A program made the translations under genes and the position numbers. From Escherichia coli (GTDB taxonomy: Bacteria; Pseudomonadota; Gammaproteobacteria; Enterobacterales; Enterobacteriaceae), in NCBI RefSeq assembly GCF_044324785.1, contig NZ_CP172127.1: 64,000 nt of DNA. The stretch is one strand, 5' to 3'. Each line of letters starts with the position of its first letter. Within the stretch, counting starts at the first letter, position 1. Shown in pieces: positions 22,943-35,003 of the stretch. The notes below the pieces were generated by a model. That model did not search any database, was not told the origin of the DNA, and worked only from the letters and a program-made list of their open reading frames with translations.

Positions 22943-23268
22943 AGACCTTCCGCTGGAAAGTGAAACCCGGTATGGATGTGGCTTCGGCCCCTTCCGTCAG
23001 GAAAGTGCGCTTTGGTGATGGCTATTCCCAGCGAGCGCCTGCCGGGCTGAATGCCGACCTGAAAACGTACAGCGTGACGCTTTCTGTTCCCCGTTGGGAG
23101 GCCACGGCGCTGGAGTCGTTTCTGGCTGAGCACGGGGGCTGGAAAGCCTTTCTGTGGACGCCGCCTTATGAGTGGCGGCAGATAAAGGTGACCTGCGCAA
23201 AATGGTCGTCGCGGGTCAGTATGCTGCGTGTTGAGTTCAGCGCAGAGTTTGAACAGGTGGTGAACTGA
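22939..23268 (+). CDS. M: Tail tip protein gpM
   Basis: 109 aa MKTFRWKVKPGMDVASAPS... Confidence 0.9.
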   Translation: MKTFRWKVKPGMDVASAPSVRKVRFGDGYSQRAPAGLNADLKTYSVTLSVPRWEATALESFLAEHGGWKAFLWTPPYEWRQIKVTCAKWSSRVSMLRVEFSAEFEQVVN

Positions 23269-23966
23269 TGCAGGATATCCGGCAGGAAACACTGAATGAA
23301 TGCACCCGTGCGGAGCAGTCGGCCAGCGTGGTGCTCTGGGAAATCGACCTGACAGAGGTCGGTGGAGAACGTTATTTTTTCTGTAATGAGCAGAACGAAA
23401 AAGGTGAGCCGGTCACCTGGCAGGGGCGACAGTATCAGCCGTATCCCATTCAGGGGAGTGGTTTTGAACTGAATGGCAAAGGCACCAGTACGCGCCCCAC
23501 ACTGACGGTTTCTAACCTGTACGGTATGGTCACCGGGATGGCGGAAGATCTGCAGAGTCTGGTCGGTGGAACGGTGGTCCGGCGTAAGGTTTACGCCCGT
23601 TTTCTGGATGCGGTGAACTTCGTCAACGGAAACAGTGGCGCCGATCCGGAGCAGGAGGTGATCAGCCGCTGGCGCATTGAGCAGTGCAGCGAACTGAGCG
23701 CGGTGAGTGCCTCTTTTGTACTGTCCACGCCGACGGAAACGGATGGCGCTGTTTTTCCGGGACGTATCATGCTGGCCAACACCTGCACCTGGACCTATCG
23801 CGGTGACGAGTGCGGTTATAGCGGTCCGGCTGTCGCGGATGAATATGACCAGCCAACGTCCGATATCACGAAGGATAAATGCAGCAAATGCCTGAGCGGT
23901 TGTAAGTTCCGCAATAACGTCGGCAACTTTGGCGGCTTCCTTTCCATTAACAAACTTTCGCAGTAA
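23268..23966 (+). CDS. L: Tail tip protein gpL (C-terminal Cys cluster)
   Basis: 232 aa; C-terminal CxxC...C...C cluster (CTWTYRGDECGY...CSKCLSGC). Confidence 0.9.
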   Translation: MQDIRQETLNECTRAEQSASVVLWEIDLTEVGGERYFFCNEQNEKGEPVTWQGRQYQPYPIQGSGFELNGKGTSTRPTLTVSNLYGMVTGMAEDLQSLVGGTVVRRKVYARFLDAVNFVNGNSGADPEQEVISRWRIEQCSELSAVSASFVLSTPTETDGAVFPGRIMLANTCTWTYRGDECGYSGPAVADEYDQPTSDITKDKCSKCLSGCKFRNNVGNFGGFLSINKLSQ

Positions 23967-25344: not shown

Positions 25345-28300
25345 ATGGGTAAAGGAAGCAGTAAGGGGCATACCCCGCGCGAAGCGAAGGACAACCTGAA
25401 GTCCACGCAGTTGCTGAGTGTGATTGATGCCATCAGTGAAGGGCCGATTGAAGGTCCGGTGGATGGATTAAAAAGCGTGCTGCTGAACAGTACGCCGGTG
25501 CTGGACAGTGATGGGAATACCAACATCGCCGGTGTCACGGTGGTGTTCCGGGCTGGTGAGCAGGAGCAGACTCCGCCGGAGGGATTTGAATCCTCCGGCT
25601 CCGAGACGGTGTTGGGTACGGAAGTGAAATACGACACGCCGATCACCCGCGCCATCACGTCGGCAAACATCGACCGACTGCGCTTTACCTTCGGTGTGCA
25701 GGCACTGGTGGAAACCACCTCAAAGGGGGACCGGAATCCGTCGGAAGTTCGCCTGCTGGTTCAGATACAGCGTAATGGTGGCTGGGTGACGGAAAAAGAC
25801 ATCACCATTAAGGGCAAAACCACCTCGCAGTATCTGGCCTCGGTGGTGGTGGATAACCTGCCGCCGCGCCCGTTTAATATCCGGATGCGCAGAATGACGC
25901 CGGACAGCACCACAGACCAGCTGCAGAACAAAACGCTCTGGTCGTCATACACCGAAATCATCGATGTGAAACAGTGCTACCCGAACACGGCACTGGTCGG
26001 CGTGCAGGTGGACTCGGAACAGTTCGGCAGCCAGCAGGTGAGCCGTAATTATCATCTTCGCGGGCGCATTCTGCAGGTGCCGTCGAACTATAACCCGCAG
26101 ACGCGGCAATACAGCGGTATCTGGGACGGAACGTTTAAGCCAGCATACAGCAACAACATGGCCTGGTGTCTGTGGGATATGCTGACCCATCCGCGCTACG
26201 GCATGGGGAAGCGTCTCGGTGCGGCGGATGTGGACAAATGGGCGCTGTATGTCATCGGCCAGAATTGCGACCAGTCGGTGCCGGATGGCTTTGGTGGCAC
26301 GGAGCCGCGCATCACCTGTAATGCCTGGCTGACCACACAGCGCAAGGCGTGGGATGTTCTCAGTGATTTCTGCTCGGCGATGCGCTGTATGCCGGTATGG
26401 AACGGGCAGACGCTGACGTTCGTGCAGGACCGACCGTCGGATAAGGTGTGGACCTATAACTGCAGTAATGTGGTGATGCCGGATGATGGCGCGCCGTTCC
26501 GCTACAGCTTCAGTGCCCTGAAGGACCGTCATAATGCCGTTGAGGTGAACTGGATTGACCCGGATAACGGCTGGGAGACGGCGACAGAGCTTGTTGAAGA
26601 TACGCAGGCCATTCTCCGTTACGGTCGTAACGTCACGAAGATGGATGCCTTTGGCTGTACCAGCCGGGGGCAGGCGCACCGCGCCGGGCTGTGGTTGATT
26701 AAAACGGAACTACTGGAAACGCAGACCGTGGACTTCAGCGTGGGGGCGGAAGGGCTTCGCCATGTGCCGGGCGATGTCATTGAAATCTGCGATGATGACT
26801 ATGCGGGGATCAGCACCGGCGGGCGCGTGCTGGCGGTGAACAGCCAGACCCGGACGCTGACGCTCGACCGTGAAATCACGCTGCCATCCTCCGGTACCAC
26901 GCTGATAAGCCTGGTTGACGGAAGTGGCAATCCGGTCAGCGTGGAGGTCCAGTCCGTCACCGACGGCGTGAAGGTAAAAGTGAGCCGTGTTCCTGACGGC
27001 GTTGCCGGATACAGCGTATGGGGGCTGAAGCTGCCGACGCTGCGCCAGCGCCTGTTCCGCTGCGTGAGTATCCGTGAGAACGACGACGGCACGTATGCCA
27101 TCACCGCCGTGCAGCATGTACCGGAAAAAGAAGCTATCGTGGATAACGGGGCGCACTTTGACGGCGACCAGAGCGGCACGGTGAATGGTGTCACGCCGCC
27201 AGCAGTGCAGCACCTGACTGCCGAAGTCACCGCAGACAGCGGGGAGTATCAGGTACTGGCCCGCTGGGACACGCCGAAGGTGGTGAAGGGCGTGAGTTTC
27301 ATGCTTCGCCTGACCGTAACAGCGGATGACGGCAGTGAGCGGCTGGTCAGCACGGCCCGGACGACGGAAACCACTTACCGCTTCACACAACTGGCTCTGG
27401 GGAACTACAGGCTGACAGTCCGGGCAGTAAATGCGTGGGGGCAGCAGGGCGATCCGGCGTCGGTATCGTTCCGGATTGCCGCACCGGCAGCGCCGTCGCG
27501 GATTGAGCTGACGCCGGGCTATTTTCAGATAACCGCCACGCCGCATCTTGCGGTTTATGATCCGACGGTACAGTTTGAGTTCTGGTTCTCGGAAAAGCGG
27601 ATTGCGGATATCAGGCAGGTTGAAACCAGCGCGCGTTATCTTGGTACGGCACTGTACTGGATAGCCGCCAGTATCAATATCAAACCGGGCCATGATTATT
27701 ATTTTTACGTTCGCAGTGTGAACACCGTTGGCAAATCGGCATTCGTGGAGGCTGTCGGTCAGCCGAGTGATGATGCATCAGGCTATCTGGATTTTTTCAA
27801 AGGCGAGATAGGGAAAACCCATCTGGCTCAGGAGCTGTGGACGCAGATTGATAACGGTCAGCTTGCGCCTGACCTGACTGAAATCAGGACGTCCATAACG
27901 GATGTCAGCAATGAAATAACACAGACCGTCAATAAGAAACTGGAAGACCAGAGTGCAGCGATCCAGCAGATACAGAAGGTTCAGGTTGATACAAATAATA
28001 ACCTGAACAGCATGTGGGCAGTGAAGCTGCAGCAGATGCAGGACGGACGCCTTTATATTGCGGGTATCGGTGCCGGTATTGAGAACACCCCTGACGGCAT
28101 GCAGAGTCAGGTGCTGCTGGCGGCGGACAGGATTGCGATGATTAATCCTGCAAATGGCAACACAAAACCGATGTTTGTTGGTCAGGGTGATCAGATATTC
28201 ATGAATGACGTGTTCCTGAAACGCCTGACGGCTCCCACCATTACCAGCGGTGGAAATCCGCCGGCATTTTCCCTGACACCGGACGGAAAGCTGACCGCTA

Positions 28301-28842
28301 AAAATGCGGATATCAGTGGCAGTGTGAATGCGAACGCCGGGACGCTCAACAATGTCACGGTAAATGAAAACTGTACGATTAAGGGCATGCTGGAGGCGAC
28401 TCAGGTCAGAGGTGACTTCGTTAAAGCTGTATCCAAATCATTCCCGAAACAGGCTGGTACGTGGGGTAATACGGAAACACCAAACGGGACGGTTACAGTC
28501 ACCATCAGCGATGATCATAACTTTGACCGTCAAATCATTATTCCGCCCATTATCTTTAACGGAATAGCGTATAGCGATCCGGGAAGTGGTAATAACCCGG
28601 GAGGTACAAGATACACGGGTTATGGTTTTGAAGTTCGCAAAAACGGCGTATTAATCGCATCCAGAGAAACTAAAGGGGCCATTCCCGGTAGTTACAGTGC
28701 AGTTATTGATATGCCGAGTGGCAGGGGAAGCGTCACTCTGGAGTTTAAGATTTTCCAGAAAGGCAATCAGGGGGCAGGCAATATCACCGACTGTACGGTG
28801 ATTGTGACCAAAAAAGCCGCTTCCGGCATCAGTATTCGTTGA
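25345..28842 (+). CDS. J: Central tail fiber / host specificity protein gpJ
   Basis: 1165-aa ORF; N-terminal and central regions lambda J-like; C-terminal region appears divergent. Confidence 0.95.
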
Positions 28843-28863: not shown

Positions 28864-28889
28864 GGGCGTCAGGAATGACGCCTTTTTTA
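28864..28889 (+). terminator. Intrinsic terminator after J
   Basis: Hairpin GGGCGTCA-GGAA-TGACGCCT followed by T-run. Confidence 0.5.
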
Positions 28890-28912
28890 TTGCAGAAAAG
28901 CGAGAGGTAATT

Positions 28913-29512
28913 ATGCGTAAAGTTTGTGCAGCAATTTTGTCCGCAGCCATTTGTCTGGCCGTATCCGGTGCGCCTGCATGGGCGTCTGAACATCAGTCCA
29001 CGCTGAGCGCGGGGTATCTTCATGCCTCGACGAACGTCCCCGGCAGTGATGATCTGAACGGGATTAACGTGAAATACCGTTATGAGTTTACGGACACACT
29101 GGGGCTGGTGACGTCATTCAGCTATGCAGGAGACAAGAATCGCCAGCTGACCCGTTACAGCGATACCCGCTGGCATGAAGATTCCGTTCGTAACCGCTGG
29201 TTCAGCGTAATGGCGGGGCCGTCTGTGCGCGTGAATGAATGGTTCAGCGCGTATGCGATGGCGGGTGTGGCTTACAGCCGTGTGTCGACTTTCTCCGGGG
29301 ATTATCTTCGCGTAACTGACAACAAGGGGAAAAAGCACGATGTGCTGACCGGAAGTGATGACGGTCGCCACAGCAACACGTCTCTGGCGTGGGGGGCTGG
29401 CGTGCAGTTTAACCCGACCGAATCCGTGGCCATTGATATTGCTTATGAAGGCTCCGGCAGTGGTGACTGGCGCACTGACGGTTTCATCGTGGGTGTCGGT
29501 TATAAATTCTGA
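28913..29512 (+). CDS. lom: Lom/Ail/PagC-family outer-membrane beta-barrel protein
   Basis: 199 aa with signal peptide; conserved C-terminus ...DIAYEGSGSGDWRTDGFIVGVGYKF. Confidence 0.9.
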   Translation: MRKVCAAILSAAICLAVSGAPAWASEHQSTLSAGYLHASTNVPGSDDLNGINVKYRYEFTDTLGLVTSFSYAGDKNRQLTRYSDTRWHEDSVRNRWFSVMAGPSVRVNEWFSAYAMAGVAYSRVSTFSGDYLRVTDNKGKKHDVLTGSDDGRHSNTSLAWGAGVQFNPTESVAIDIAYEGSGSGDWRTDGFIVGVGYKF

Positions 29513-29538: not shown

Positions 29539-29566
29539 AGCCCGCCGGTTCAGGTGGGCTTTTTTG
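29539..29566 (+). terminator. Possible intrinsic terminator after lom
   Basis: Imperfect hairpin AGCCCGCC...GGTGGGCT followed by TTTTTTG. Confidence 0.4.
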
Positions 29567-29576
29567 TGGGGTGAAT

Positions 29577-32405
29577 ATGGCAGTAAAGATTTCAGGTGTA
29601 CTGAAAGACGGCACAGGAAAACCGGTACAGAACTGCACAATCCAGCTGAAAGCAAAACGTAACAGCACCACGGTGGTGGTAAACACGCTGGCCTCAGAAA
29701 ATCCGGATGAAGCCGGGCGTTACAGCATGGACGTTGAGTACGGGCAGTACAGCGTTATTCTGTTGGTGGAGGGATTCCCGCCGTCACATGCCGGGACCAT
29801 CACCGTGTATGAAGATTCCCGACCCGGTACGCTGAATGATTTTCTCGGTGCCATGACGGAGGATGATGCCCGTCCTGAGGCACTGCGCCGTTTTGAACTG
29901 ATGGTGGAAGAGGTGGCGCGTAACGCGTCCGCGGTGGCACAGAACACGGCAGCCGCGAAGAAGTCAGCCAGCGATGCCGGCACATCAGCACGTGAGGCGG
30001 CAACCCATGCGACTGATGCTGCAGGCTCAGCACGCGCAGCCAGCACGTCAGCCGGACAGGCCGCGTCGTCGGCTCAGTCAGCATCTTCCAGCGCAGGAAC
30101 GGCATCAACAAAGGCCAGTGAAGCATCGAAAAGTGCTGCTGCTGCAGAGTCCTCAAAAAGCGCGGCAGCTACCAGTGCCGCTGCGGCGAAAACGTCAGAA
30201 ACGAATGCGGCAGCGTCACAACAATCAGCAGCCACTTCTGCATCCGCCGCGACCACGAAGGCGTCAGAAGCTGCCACCTCAGCCCGGGATGCGGCGGCCT
30301 CAAAAGAGGCGGCAAAATCATCAGAAACGAGCGCAGCCTCGAGCGCCAGTAGTGCAGCCTCCTCGGCAACAGCGGCAGGAAATTCCGCGAAGGCGGCAAA
30401 AACGTCCGAGACGAACGCTAAGTCTTCTGAGACGGCAGCAGCACAGAGTGCCTCCGCAGCAGCAGACTCAAAAACAGCGGCTGCCTCATCTGCCAGCGCC
30501 GCGTCAACAAATGCCGGGCAGGCCTCAGCCAGTGCCACCGCCGCCGGAAAATCGGCAGAAAGTGCTGCATCGTCCGCTTCAACAGCCACAACGAAGGCTG
30601 GCGAAGCCGCTGTACAGGCCAGCGCAGCAGCGAGGTCTGCTTCCGCAGCGAAGACATCCGAGACGAACGCGAAAGCGTCGGAAACCAGCGCAGAATCCTC
30701 AAAAACGGCTGCCGCATCGTCCGCCAGTTCGGCGGCGTCATCGGCATCATCTGCGTCTGCTTCAAAAGATGAGGCGACCAGACAAGCGTCCGCAGCGAAG
30801 GGCAGCGCCACGACAGCATCCACGAAGGCGACAGAGGCAGCTGGCAGTGCGACGGCGGCAGCACAGAGCAAAAGTACGGCGGAATCCGCGGCAACGCGCG
30901 CCGAGACAGCGGCAAAACGGGCAGAGGATATTGCATCCGCCGTGGCGCTTGAGGATGCGAGCACGACGAAAAAGGGGATAGTACAGCTCAGCAGTGCGAC
31001 CAACAGCACTTCCGAGTCACAGGCGGCAACGCCAAAAGCCGTTAAGGCCGCGTATGACCTGGCTAACGGGAAATACACCGCACAGGACGCTACGACAGCA
31101 CAAAAAGGAATTGTCCAGCTCAGTAGTGCAACCAACAGCACATCTGAAACGCTTGCTGCGACACCGAAAGCAGTGAAAGCAGCTAATGACAATGCGAATG
31201 GTCGGGTACCTTCTGCCCGTAAGGTGAATGGTAAGGCGCTTTCAGCGGATATAACACTGACGCCGAAAGATATTGGTACGCTTAACTCAACAACAATGTC
31301 ATTCAGCGGTGGTACTGGTTGGTTCAAATTAGCAACGGTAACCATGCCACAGGCGAGTTCTGTTGTTTCAATTACGTTGATTGGTGGCGCTGGATTTAAC
31401 GTGGGGTCACCTCAACAGGCAGGTATATCTGAACTTGTTTTACGTGCAGGTAATGGTAATCCGAAGGGGATTACTGGTGCTTTATGGCAGCGCACATCGA
31501 CAGGGTTTACAAATTTTGCCTGGGTCAATACATCTGGTGATACTTACGATATTTACGTTGCAATCGGAAATTATGCGACTGGTGTAAATATTCAATGGGA
31601 TTATACCAGTAATGCCAGCGTGACGATTCATACGTCACCAGCATATTCTGCTAATAAGCCGGAAGGGTTAACGGACGGTACAGTTTATTCACTCTATACG
31701 CCATCAGAGCAGTTTTATCCGCCTGGCGCACCAATCCCGTGGCCATCAGATACCGTTCCGTCTGGCTATGCCCTGATGCAGGGGCAGACTTTTGACAAAT
31801 CTGCATACCCGAAACTTGCAGCCGCTTATCCGTCAGGCGTGATCCCTGATATGCGTGGCTGGACGATTAAGGGCAAACCTGCCAGTGGTCGGGCCGTATT
31901 GTCTCAGGAACAGGACGGCATTAAATCGCATACCCACAGCGCCAGCGCATCCAGTACGGATTTGGGGACGAAAACCACATCGTCGTTTGATTACGGCACT
32001 AAATCCACGAATAACACTGGTGCGCATACCCATAGTTTAAGTGGCAGCACGAATGCAGCTGGTAATCACAGCCATAGAGATGGCCGTCGATTTAACCCCA
32101 GTGTTTTTAAAGATACTTATCAATATGGTTATACAAGCTCAGGTCAAAATACCTGGGGTGTACAAGGCTCAGTAGGTATGTCTACGGGGTGGTTAGCGAA
32201 TACCAGTACAGATGGTAATCATAGCCATTCACTGTCCGGCACAGCAGCATCTGCAGGTGCACACGCGCATACTGTCGGTATTGGTGCTCATACGCACTCC
32301 GTTGCGATTGGTTCACATGGACACACCATCACCGTTAACGCTGCTGGTAACGCGGAAAACACCGTCAAAAACATCGCATTTAACTATATTGTGAGGCTTG
32401 CATAA
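29577..32405 (+). CDS. stf: Side tail fiber protein Stf
   Basis: ORF 29571-32405; start at [12 protein letters not shown]; Ala/Ser-rich repeat block, duplicated phage tail-fiber repeat ([15 protein letters not shown]...[10 protein letters not shown]), His-rich HxH C-terminal motifs. Confidence 0.9.
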
Positions 32406-32980
32406 TGGCATTCAGAATGAGTGAACAACCACGGACCATAAAAATTTATAATCTGCTGGCCGGAACTAATGAATTTATTGGTGAAGGTGACGCATATATT
32501 CCGCCTCATACAGGTCTGCCAGCAAACAGTACCGATATTGCACCACCAGATATTCCTGCTGGCTTTGTGGCTGTTTTCAACAGTGATAAGGCATCGTGGC
32601 ATCTCGTTGAAGACCATCGGGGTAAAACGGTTTATGACGTAGCGTCAGGGGACGCGTTATTTATTTCTGAACTCGGTCCGTTACCGGAAAATGTTACCTG
32701 GTTATCGCCGGAAGGGGAGTTTCAGAAGTGGAACGGCACAGCCTGGGTGAAAGATGCAGAAGCAGAAAAACTGTTCCGGATCCGAGAGGCGGAAGAAACA
32801 AAAAACAGCCTGATGCAGGTAGCCAGTGAGCATATTGCGCCACTTCAGGATGCTGTAGATCTGGAAATCGCAACGGAGGAAGAAACCTCATTGCTGGAAG
32901 CCTGGAAAAAGTATCGGGTGTTGCTGAACCGTGTTGATACGTCAACTGCACAGGATATTGAATGGCCAGCACTGCCGTAG
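32405..32980 (+). CDS. tfa: Tail fiber assembly protein Tfa
   Basis: 191 aa [24 protein letters not shown]...; ATG overlaps stf stop (TAATG). Confidence 0.9.
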
Positions 32981-33077: not shown

Positions 33078-33668
33078 TTATATGTCAGGTGTCTGAAGTT
33101 TTGCTTTGGCTCTTAAAATGGTTTGCCGCGAGGTTTTGAATTCCCGGGCAATGGCACTTATACTTACACCTGACTTAATTCGTTCGAATACCACCTGTTT
33201 CTGTTCTTCATTTAACACAGGTGGTCGACCAAAACGTTTCCCTGCGCCGCGGGCTCTTACTATCCCGGAATGAGTGCGTTCAAGTAAAAGGTCTCGTTCA
33301 AATTCAGCGACTGCTGAAATTACGTGCATCATCATTTTTCCTGTTGGACTGGTCAGGTCAATGCCCCCCAATGCTAAGCAATGCACTCTGATACCTGTTT
33401 CGGTCAGTTGTTCCACTGTTTTCCTGATATCCATTGCATTACAACCAAGGCGATCCAGTTTTGTCACAATCAATTGATCACCACATTTCAGGCGAGCAAG
33501 CAACCGGTTAAAACCAGGACGCTCACTGGTTGCTGCTGAGCCGCTAATGTGTTCTTCGATTATTTGCTGAGGTTTGATTTTAAAACCTGCACTTTCGATT
33601 TCCCGGCGTTGATTTTCGATGGTCTGATCCAGCGTTGATATCCGACAGTAAGCAAAAATTCGAGACAT
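33078..33668 (-). CDS. pin: Pin/Gin/Hin-family serine DNA invertase
   Basis: 196 aa [20 protein letters not shown]... with catalytic Ser in the N-terminal motif and C-terminal HTH. Confidence 0.9.
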
Positions 33669-34218: not shown

Positions 34219-35003
34219 GAAGATATTCCTTAAAATATTATTGAGTTTCATTGCGATATTGTATGTCTGATTCAGGATATGTTGACTTATACATCGGTTT
34301 TGTCTGGGTTATTGGATATGCCAATCCCTAATTTTATTAGGGCATGACTAAAAATGCTGAATATGATAAGGAGAGAAGTGATTATCAGTATGCTGTTCAT
34401 ATAGCCTCGAATTAGTAATGTGTTATATATGATATAGTTGACAATTTTTATCTTGGGTGTTCTTAAAGTTCGTAGATAAACATTGTCGTTTCAGGTATAC
34501 AGGAATGCTAACAGGTGGCAGCAAAAATCAGGCGGTTTATGGCGCAAGCTGAAGCGGCAACTGCAAACTATCTTATGCAGAGACTCTACACGGATTGGGT
34601 TTAAAAGTATACATAGATAACAGTTTTTATCTGAAAAAGAAAAATATCAAGGTGATATAGCCTATATGCCTTTGATGCGGAGGAATGAATGTGATGGGAG
34701 TGATGTATCTGAATAGTTGAAAAACCGCAGACACGCCTTATGCAAGAACGTGCTGCGGTTGGCTGGTAAATTTTTCGATAGTGTGAGTATTGAATGATTT
34801 CCAGCCGTTCTTGATTTTACGCATAAATCCATGAAAAAACTACTTATCTGTTGGGGAGTTTTTTTGGGGCATATATGGGACAGAAATAGGCCCCAGATAG
34901 ACACTGAGATCGAACTTAGGATGCTTTTTAAAAAATGCAACTATCTGAAAAAACCTAGAAAACGCCAAGGAAACCACAGGATGGGAAAAAACACCTGTGA
35001 ATT

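Follow-up and report, generated by a model that had tools for sequence, protein, structure and literature searches.

Fuerst and Bingham in 1978 and Werts et al. in 1994 are said to have mapped host range to the distal part of J. In phage lambda, whose receptor is LamB, the central tail fibre is a trimer of J, and each Ig-like receptor-binding domain (RBD) inserts four distal loops into the trimeric porin (PMC11101478). On binding, the base of the RBD widens, the fibre is twisted and the helical shaft is flipped, which opens the tail tip (PMC11101478). Phage 434, as well as lambda with the 434 tail-fibre gene, uses OmpC (PMC3509688, PMC11101478, PMC12502783), and in an AlphaFold3 docking model the 434 fibre sits on this porin (PMC12502783). 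The native receptor of phage 21 is LamB, and a single J mutation leads to OmpC use (PMC11336670). Lambda particles are redirected to OmpC when the C-terminus of J is exchanged at lambda aa 964, and natural gpJ variants on panels of OmpC alleles differ in the alleles accepted while keeping the same receptor class (PMC11338833). The specificity region of J was described in 2018 as an independently recombining module, partly with the same phages as those compared below (PMC6646904).

Identity and genomic setting of the J gene

The window, a 64,000-nucleotide stretch of Escherichia coli DNA (contig NZ_CP172127.1), carries a lambdoid prophage tail region with the following features in and downstream of J.

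25345..28842, + strand: gene J, tip attachment (central tail fibre) protein, an intact open reading frame of 1165 aa with no frameshift or stop (ORF list and translation)
25345..27750, + strand: conserved hub domains and two FNIII/Ig domains (aa 1 to ~802), common to lambda, 434 and 21 (89-100% nucleotide identity per 100-nt bin)
27751..28240, + strand: phage-21-type module, the alpha-helical shaft with 28 extra residues and the upper central straight fibre, aa ~803-965 (nucleotide identity)
28241..28344, + strand: lower central-fibre segment conserved across the compared J alleles, a likely recombination joint (identity by bin)
28345..28842, + strand: phage-434-type RBD, aa ~1001-1165, in which Ig_GpJ_C (aa 1029-1164) corresponds to nt 28429-28836 (nucleotide and amino acid identity)
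28865..28890, + strand: intrinsic terminator after J, hairpin GGCGTCA-GGAA-TGACGCC (28865-28882) followed by a T run (sequence reading and hairpin scan)
28913..29512, + strand: lom, an Ail/Lom outer-membrane protein (Pfam Ail_Lom, E = 1e-122; IAI1 annotation), adjoining J as in lambda
29571..32980, + strand: stf, side tail fibre (944 aa), and tfa, assembly chaperone (191 aa) (Pfam)

The six gpJ-specific Pfam models all matched window J above their cut-offs and in order over aa 86-1164: FNIII-A_GpJ (86-207), Phage-tail_3 (330-498), Ig_J (610-714), Ig_J_second (716-818), Phage_Tail_Tip (872-1000) and Ig_GpJ_C (1029-1164). The protein has the complete gpJ series of hub domains, two FNIII/Ig domains, a tail-tip fibre domain and a C-terminal Ig-like RBD. 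Its C-terminal 365 aa matched the solved structures of lambda gpJ in phmmer searches, with E values of 1e-98 (8xcj) and 3e-97 (8iyk). A Foldseek search with the AF2 model of the RBD gave lambda gpJ (8xcj/8xck, E~1e-17) as the best PDB matches, and A8 gpJ (9wca/9wcb) was also found. In the 205-aa AF2 model of aa 961-1165, most of the RBD (model residues 71-200) has pLDDT values of 82-94, and the model was adequate for this domain only. The AF2 monomer model of the distal 365 aa had a mean pLDDT of 51, the 10-residue blocks of its shaft and fibre scoring 25-49, and was used solely for noting predicted helices.

The gene order in the window, H-M-L-K-I-J-lom-stf-tfa, is the normal lambda order and is followed by pinQ. 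The position of J after H-M-L-K-I and before lom and stf agrees with the annotation of E. coli IAI1 and with phages lambda, 434 and 21. The terminator after J likewise has an annotated counterpart in 434 and 21. All tail reading frames in the window are full length (H, 859 aa; M, 109 aa; L, 232 aa; K, 247 aa; I, 223 aa; J, 1165 aa; as well as lom, stf and tfa). By its domains, its sequence and fold homology and its operon position, window J is a lambda-type tip attachment protein (gpJ). The products of stf, which matched the Pfam models phage_tail_N, Phage_fiber_2 and Collar, and of tfa, which matched Caudo_TAP, are a second host-range determinant of the same tail. An invertible stf/tfa segment adjoining pinQ was searched for and not found, the only candidate being one weak 20-nt inverted pair.

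Mosaic structure of the distal J region

We aligned the distal part of window J with those of lambda, 434 (OL657226), 21 (OL657228) and phi330 (PV189401), naming the shaft and fibre domains after PMC11101478. Lambda J (J02459, 15505-18903; P03749; PDB 8IYK, 8XCK and 8XCJ) resembles window J in architecture and gene position, and the two proteins are 82% identical overall (BLASTP), but this identity is spread very unevenly. Over aa 1-815, window J is 97.2% identical to lambda and 97.5% identical to both 434 and 21. Over aa 819-1165, its identity to lambda is only 47.0%, with 20.8% in the helical shaft (aa 819-871) and 34.5%, with five indels, in the Pfam RBD (aa 1029-1164). The same boundary was observed in the DNA. 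The 100-nt bins as far as 27744 are 91-99% identical to lambda. Identity takes values of 75%, 18%, 46% and 61% in the successive bins beyond, returns to 82-95% at 28145-28344 and then remains at 37-63% to the stop codon of J, and the GC content shifts at this boundary from 0.62-0.64 to 0.47-0.52. The original prediction had described J as lambda-like in its N-terminal and central parts and as divergent from position 27800 onwards, and the alignments agree with it, the earliest lambda-specific mismatches lying at nt ~27753, about 50 nt further upstream. The divergence greatly exceeds what chance would produce. A close match to lambda J over the whole C-terminal 250 aa would have spoken against a divergent distal region, but in the pairwise alignments with lambda and other lambdoid J proteins these residues are 53.5% identical to lambda. 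Lambda J, described in the prediction as slightly shorter, indeed has 1132 aa compared to 1165 aa in the window. The additional 33 aa consist of a 28-aa insertion in the shaft, in two parts of 21 and 7 aa (aa 836-856 and 860-866), and a net gain of 5 aa from the RBD indels.

Immediately downstream of the FNIII/Ig domains, window J resembles the J protein of phage 21 (1160 aa, LamB-dependent), with which it also shares the hub. The nucleotide identity to phage 21 over nt 27751-28240 is 91-99%, as opposed to 18-83% to lambda and 434. In the shaft (aa 819-871), 51 of 53 residues (96.2%) are identical to phage 21 J, compared to 20.8% identity to lambda and 434, and the nucleotide identity to phage 21 in this region is 94-99%. 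The similarity to phage 21 extends over the Pfam Phage_Tail_Tip domain (93.8% at the amino acid level). Window J thus has the long alpha-helical shaft of the phage-21 type, together with its 28 additional residues. About one third of the divergent stretch, the shaft and the upper fibre, is a 21-type structural module located outside the receptor contact. The RBD of phage 21, on the other hand, is only 38% identical to that of window J.

The lower central-fibre segment that follows is conserved among the compared alleles, including lambda, whose HepS trigger residue F924 corresponds to F952 in window J. The DNA of the bin 28245-28344 matches lambda at 95%, 434 at 90% and 21 at 78%, and the best match changes from 21 to 434 across nt 28241-28344. 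The shaft and RBD modules were likely joined by recombination in this segment. It coincides with lambda aa 964, the fusion point of functional gpJ chimeras (PMC11338833), and the J 'specificity region' (960-1132) defined by Maddamsetti et al. begins at the same place (PMC6646904).

The RBD itself matched that of phage 434, whose J protein (1137 aa, OmpC-dependent) is also similar to window J in the hub and FNIII domains. Over this domain, the nucleotide identity is 89-100% to 434 versus 37-63% to lambda, and 127 of 136 residues of Ig_GpJ_C (93.4%) are identical to 434, without any indel and with the same loop lengths. The corresponding amino acid identities are 34% for lambda, 38% for phage 21 and 40% for phi330. 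The window RBD also has the loop insertions specific to 434, for example GTWGNT and SGNNPGG, the final 10 C-terminal residues are identical in the two proteins, and the lom-stf-tfa layout downstream is shared. The window RBD is therefore a 434-type allele and, with 34.5% identity and five indels, not the lambda-type (LamB) allele represented by lambda J residues ~990-1132. Phage 434 J differs from window J in the shaft, which is of the short lambda type in 434 and 28 aa longer in the window. Taken together, the distal part of window J is a mosaic of two known alleles, combining a 21-type shaft and upper fibre with a 434-type RBD.

The same combination of a 21-type shaft and a 434-type RBD was found in cdtI, PhiR26_1, Ayreon, phi458, mEp460, ev099/ev243 and the O157 Stx1a- and Stx2c-converting phages. 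With few substitutions, these phages showed 94-97% DNA identity to the window over nt 27500-28842 and up to 99.4% amino acid identity in the last 165 residues. The PhiR series and mEp332 also carry this combination, at 94-97% DNA identity. The C-terminus of window J would have been assembled by homologous recombination among allelic modules circulating in E. coli lambdoid phages, with a hub and FNIII domains common to lambda, 21 and 434, a shaft and upper fibre from the 21 allele and a terminal Ig-like RBD from the 434 allele.

Point-mutational drift of a single lineage, with no modular exchange, could also make a J protein diverge from that of lambda, and the 434-type segment is itself about 10% diverged in DNA from phage 434. 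Drift, however, does not account for identities that jump between adjacent 100-nt bins (95% to 18%; 78% to phage 21, then ~90% to 434), nor for a best-matching reference phage that differs by segment and a GC content that shifts at the boundary. Separate phylogenies have moreover been reported for J and its specificity region (PMC6646904), and we regard drift as scarcely credible here.

Receptor prediction and alternative readings

The receptor of window J is most likely OmpC rather than LamB, because its RBD is 93% identical to that of 434. The original prediction that this prophage may use an outer-membrane receptor other than that of lambda is supported by homology only, the RBD being the phage-434 allele, and it can be sharpened from another receptor to probably OmpC. 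We assign a probability of about 0.8 to the overall reading, namely that distal J consists of recombined modules with a 434-type RBD and that OmpC is the most likely porin. No published receptor determination was found for the phages with near-identical J (the PhiR series, mEp332/mEp460, Ayreon, phi458, ev099/ev243 and cdtI), for which the literature consists of genome announcements and comparative papers only, and no adsorption or binding results were found in the literature for phages with an RBD at least 98% identical to that of window J.

Several other candidates were considered as guides to the receptor and set aside. The sequenced lambda h434 hybrid (lambda h434 imm21) carries 434 lom, stf and tfa besides 434 J; since the side fibre genes of 434 are present too, it cannot by itself tell whether J or the side fibre determines OmpC use, and it was rejected as proof of RBD-borne OmpC use. 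The gpJ C-termini of phi330 and of the Eligo chimeras A8 and 1A2 bind OmpC (PDB 9WCB), have the same Ig-like RBD fold as window J and are likewise swappable C-terminal modules, able to retarget the lambda tail to OmpC (PMC11338833). Their RBD alleles nevertheless differ from that of window J. Phi330, an OmpC-dependent Stx phage close to the DNA-matching WGPS6, was not used as a receptor proxy, its RBD being another allele (40% identical). A8 and 1A2 were rejected as 434-type representatives, since A8 is of the phi330 type and 1A2, from its supplement sequence, is clearly of a third type. Gifsy-1 J (OmpC/BtuB/OmpX) was rejected as well; its C-terminus is reported to be 18% identical to that of lambda, and the source makes no mention of 434. 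The RBDs of phage 21 and phi330 are 79% identical to each other and differ in receptor class (LamB and OmpC, respectively), from which it follows that modest divergence can switch the receptor.

The RBDs of window J and 434 differ by nine substitutions, at positions 1032, 1036, 1037, 1047, 1077, 1127, 1136, 1138 and 1143. Six of them (1036, 1037, 1047, 1077, 1138 and 1143) fall within the 34 of 140 positions aligned to the predicted OmpC-contact loops, these being the three loops predicted to touch OmpC in 434 and phi330 (PMC12502783). The enrichment has a hypergeometric P of 0.007, with loop boundaries chosen post hoc. In the sampled 434-type family, the variable sites concentrate in the same predicted contact loops. 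OmpC is polymorphic, and it is plausible from these positions that the nine substitutions tune the domain to particular OmpC variants. A stronger version, which we consider unlikely, is that they retarget the RBD to a subset of natural OmpC alleles closed to 434, or less likely to another porin, and/or that the length of the shaft is functionally coupled to the type of receptor. Such coupling, rather than chance recombination, might explain why the long 21-type shaft is so widely found together with the 434-type RBD.

By analogy with lambda J, three chains of window J would assemble into the central tail fibre and insert the distal loops of their RBDs into a trimeric porin, and the signal of binding would pass through the fibre and then the shaft until the tail tip opens. 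The porin recognised would most likely be OmpC rather than LamB, since the RBD is of the 434 type, and the substitutions relative to 434, few in number and mostly in loops predicted to contact the porin, may tune the RBD to OmpC variants.

A 434-like RBD could in principle have been shifted by its loop substitutions to another porin (LamB, OmpF or another outer-membrane protein) or to multiple receptors. The pair of phage 21 and phi330 and the single mutation that expands phage 21 to OmpC (PMC11336670) lend some weight to such a shift, as does the location of six of the nine substitutions relative to 434 in predicted contact loops. However, the divergence from 434 amounts to just 6.6%, with every loop length and indel conserved, and the RBD types shown to use LamB, those of lambda and 21, are only 34-38% identical to the window RBD. 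The natural gpJ variants mentioned above, furthermore, vary in the OmpC alleles accepted and not in receptor class (PMC11338833). We consider a shifted receptor quite improbable.

A further alternative concerns the present activity of J and not its identity or binding, and is compatible with OmpC as the predicted receptor. The prophage at the Qin locus might be defective and its J a relic, no longer mediating the adsorption of any particle from this cell and serving only as a reservoir of host-range modules for incoming lambdoid phages. The J-lom region of the window is 99.9% identical in DNA to E. coli IAI1 and several other strains, and the IAI1 homologue is annotated as gpJ. The IAI1 annotation places a full-length prophage at the Qin locus, with relBE, hokD, ydfT, essD, rrrQ and nohA through to tfaQ, pinQ and ydfK, and with ydfJ split. 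The IAI1 copy has a frameshift in L, and several genes of its early region are either pseudogenes or broken by an IS fragment; judging by this homologue, the window prophage may make no infectious particles. The window lies outside the lysogeny and replication (early) region of its own prophage. Within the window, on the other hand, all tail reading frames are full length, and J has neither a frameshift nor a stop. We take the relic to be a serious possibility, somewhat short of an even chance.

Distribution of the J alleles and significance

Of 5426 complete E. coli genomes, 2091 have the 434-type RBD at the DNA level and 3548 the long 21-type shaft. The lambda-type RBD was found in 96 of the 5426, all at least 99% identical to lambda, and five of these genomes, among the matches listed, were laboratory K-12, B and DE3 strains. 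An RBD at least 90% identical to that of the window at the amino acid level, and up to 99.4%, was present in 74 phage records, and the count is the same for this allele at ≥94% amino acid identity. Among them, the records of Ayreon, PhiR26_1 and phi458 give E. coli K-12, MG1655 or MC1061 as the host. The J variant of the window is thus common in E. coli and far commoner than lambda's own allele, and it is lambda that is the outlier.

The feature itself is already known, the modular exchange of J specificity and the use of OmpC by the 434 allele being established, and it adds no new biology. For annotation, the central fibre of the window prophage should be predicted as OmpC-using rather than LamB-using. 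This prediction and the rarity of lambda's own LamB-binding allele in E. coli are helpful when host range is predicted, when delivery particles are derived from prophages and when lambdoid J genes are interpreted.

Identity and state of the prophage

The gene content, read through the annotation of E. coli IAI1, identifies the prophage bearing J (the tail-tip protein) as a full-length form of the lambdoid prophage at the Qin locus. Its genes include relBE, hokD, rem, ydfT, cspB/F, essD, rrrQ and nohA, through to tfaQ, pinQ and ydfK, and its head and tail module is complete. The IAI1 copy, 99.9% identical in DNA over J-lom, has decayed early genes and a frameshift in gene L, whereas gene L (23268-23966) is intact in the window, as are the remaining tail ORFs.

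The region downstream of J

The following features were located between J and the right end of the prophage.

28865-28890: hairpin and T-run terminator, immediately 3' of J
29539-29570: hairpin and T-run terminator, 3' of lom
29571-32405: stf, the side tail fibre gene
33078-33668 (-): pinQ, Pin-family invertase gene, adjoining tfa (fibre chaperone) on its downstream side
near 34500-35000: split ydfJ, at the prophage right end

The two terminators flank lom and set it apart as a moron-like unit; phages 434 and 21 have terminators annotated at both of these positions. The stf product contains an Ala/Ser/Thr-rich low-complexity repeat of ~370 aa (29915-31010), which accounts for two compositional features of that stretch, a GC content of 0.62 and an extreme skew between A and T (0.38-0.41), and also for the long overlapping ORFs at 29974-30981 (+) and 30074-31345 (-), which are spurious. 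No convincing inverted repeats flanking an invertible fibre segment were found near pinQ in the window sequence, the sole inverted pair being 20 nt long and 80% complementary (33231/34179).

Predicted HepS trigger segment of J, and receptor class among lambdoid J proteins

A lambda J peptide (residues 902-933) triggers HepS, an abortive-infection nuclease of Gifsy-1 (PMC13043305). Its counterpart in the window J, residues 930-961 (28132-28227), is conserved, with substitutions at 6 of the 32 positions. Since the key phenylalanine, lambda F924, is retained as F952, this J would be predicted from its sequence to trigger HepS.

The C-terminal receptor-binding domains of the phage 21 and phi330/A8 J proteins are 79% identical, and yet phage 21 uses LamB and phi330/A8 uses OmpC. 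Identity below ~80% in this domain is thus an unsafe guide to receptor class among lambdoid J proteins.
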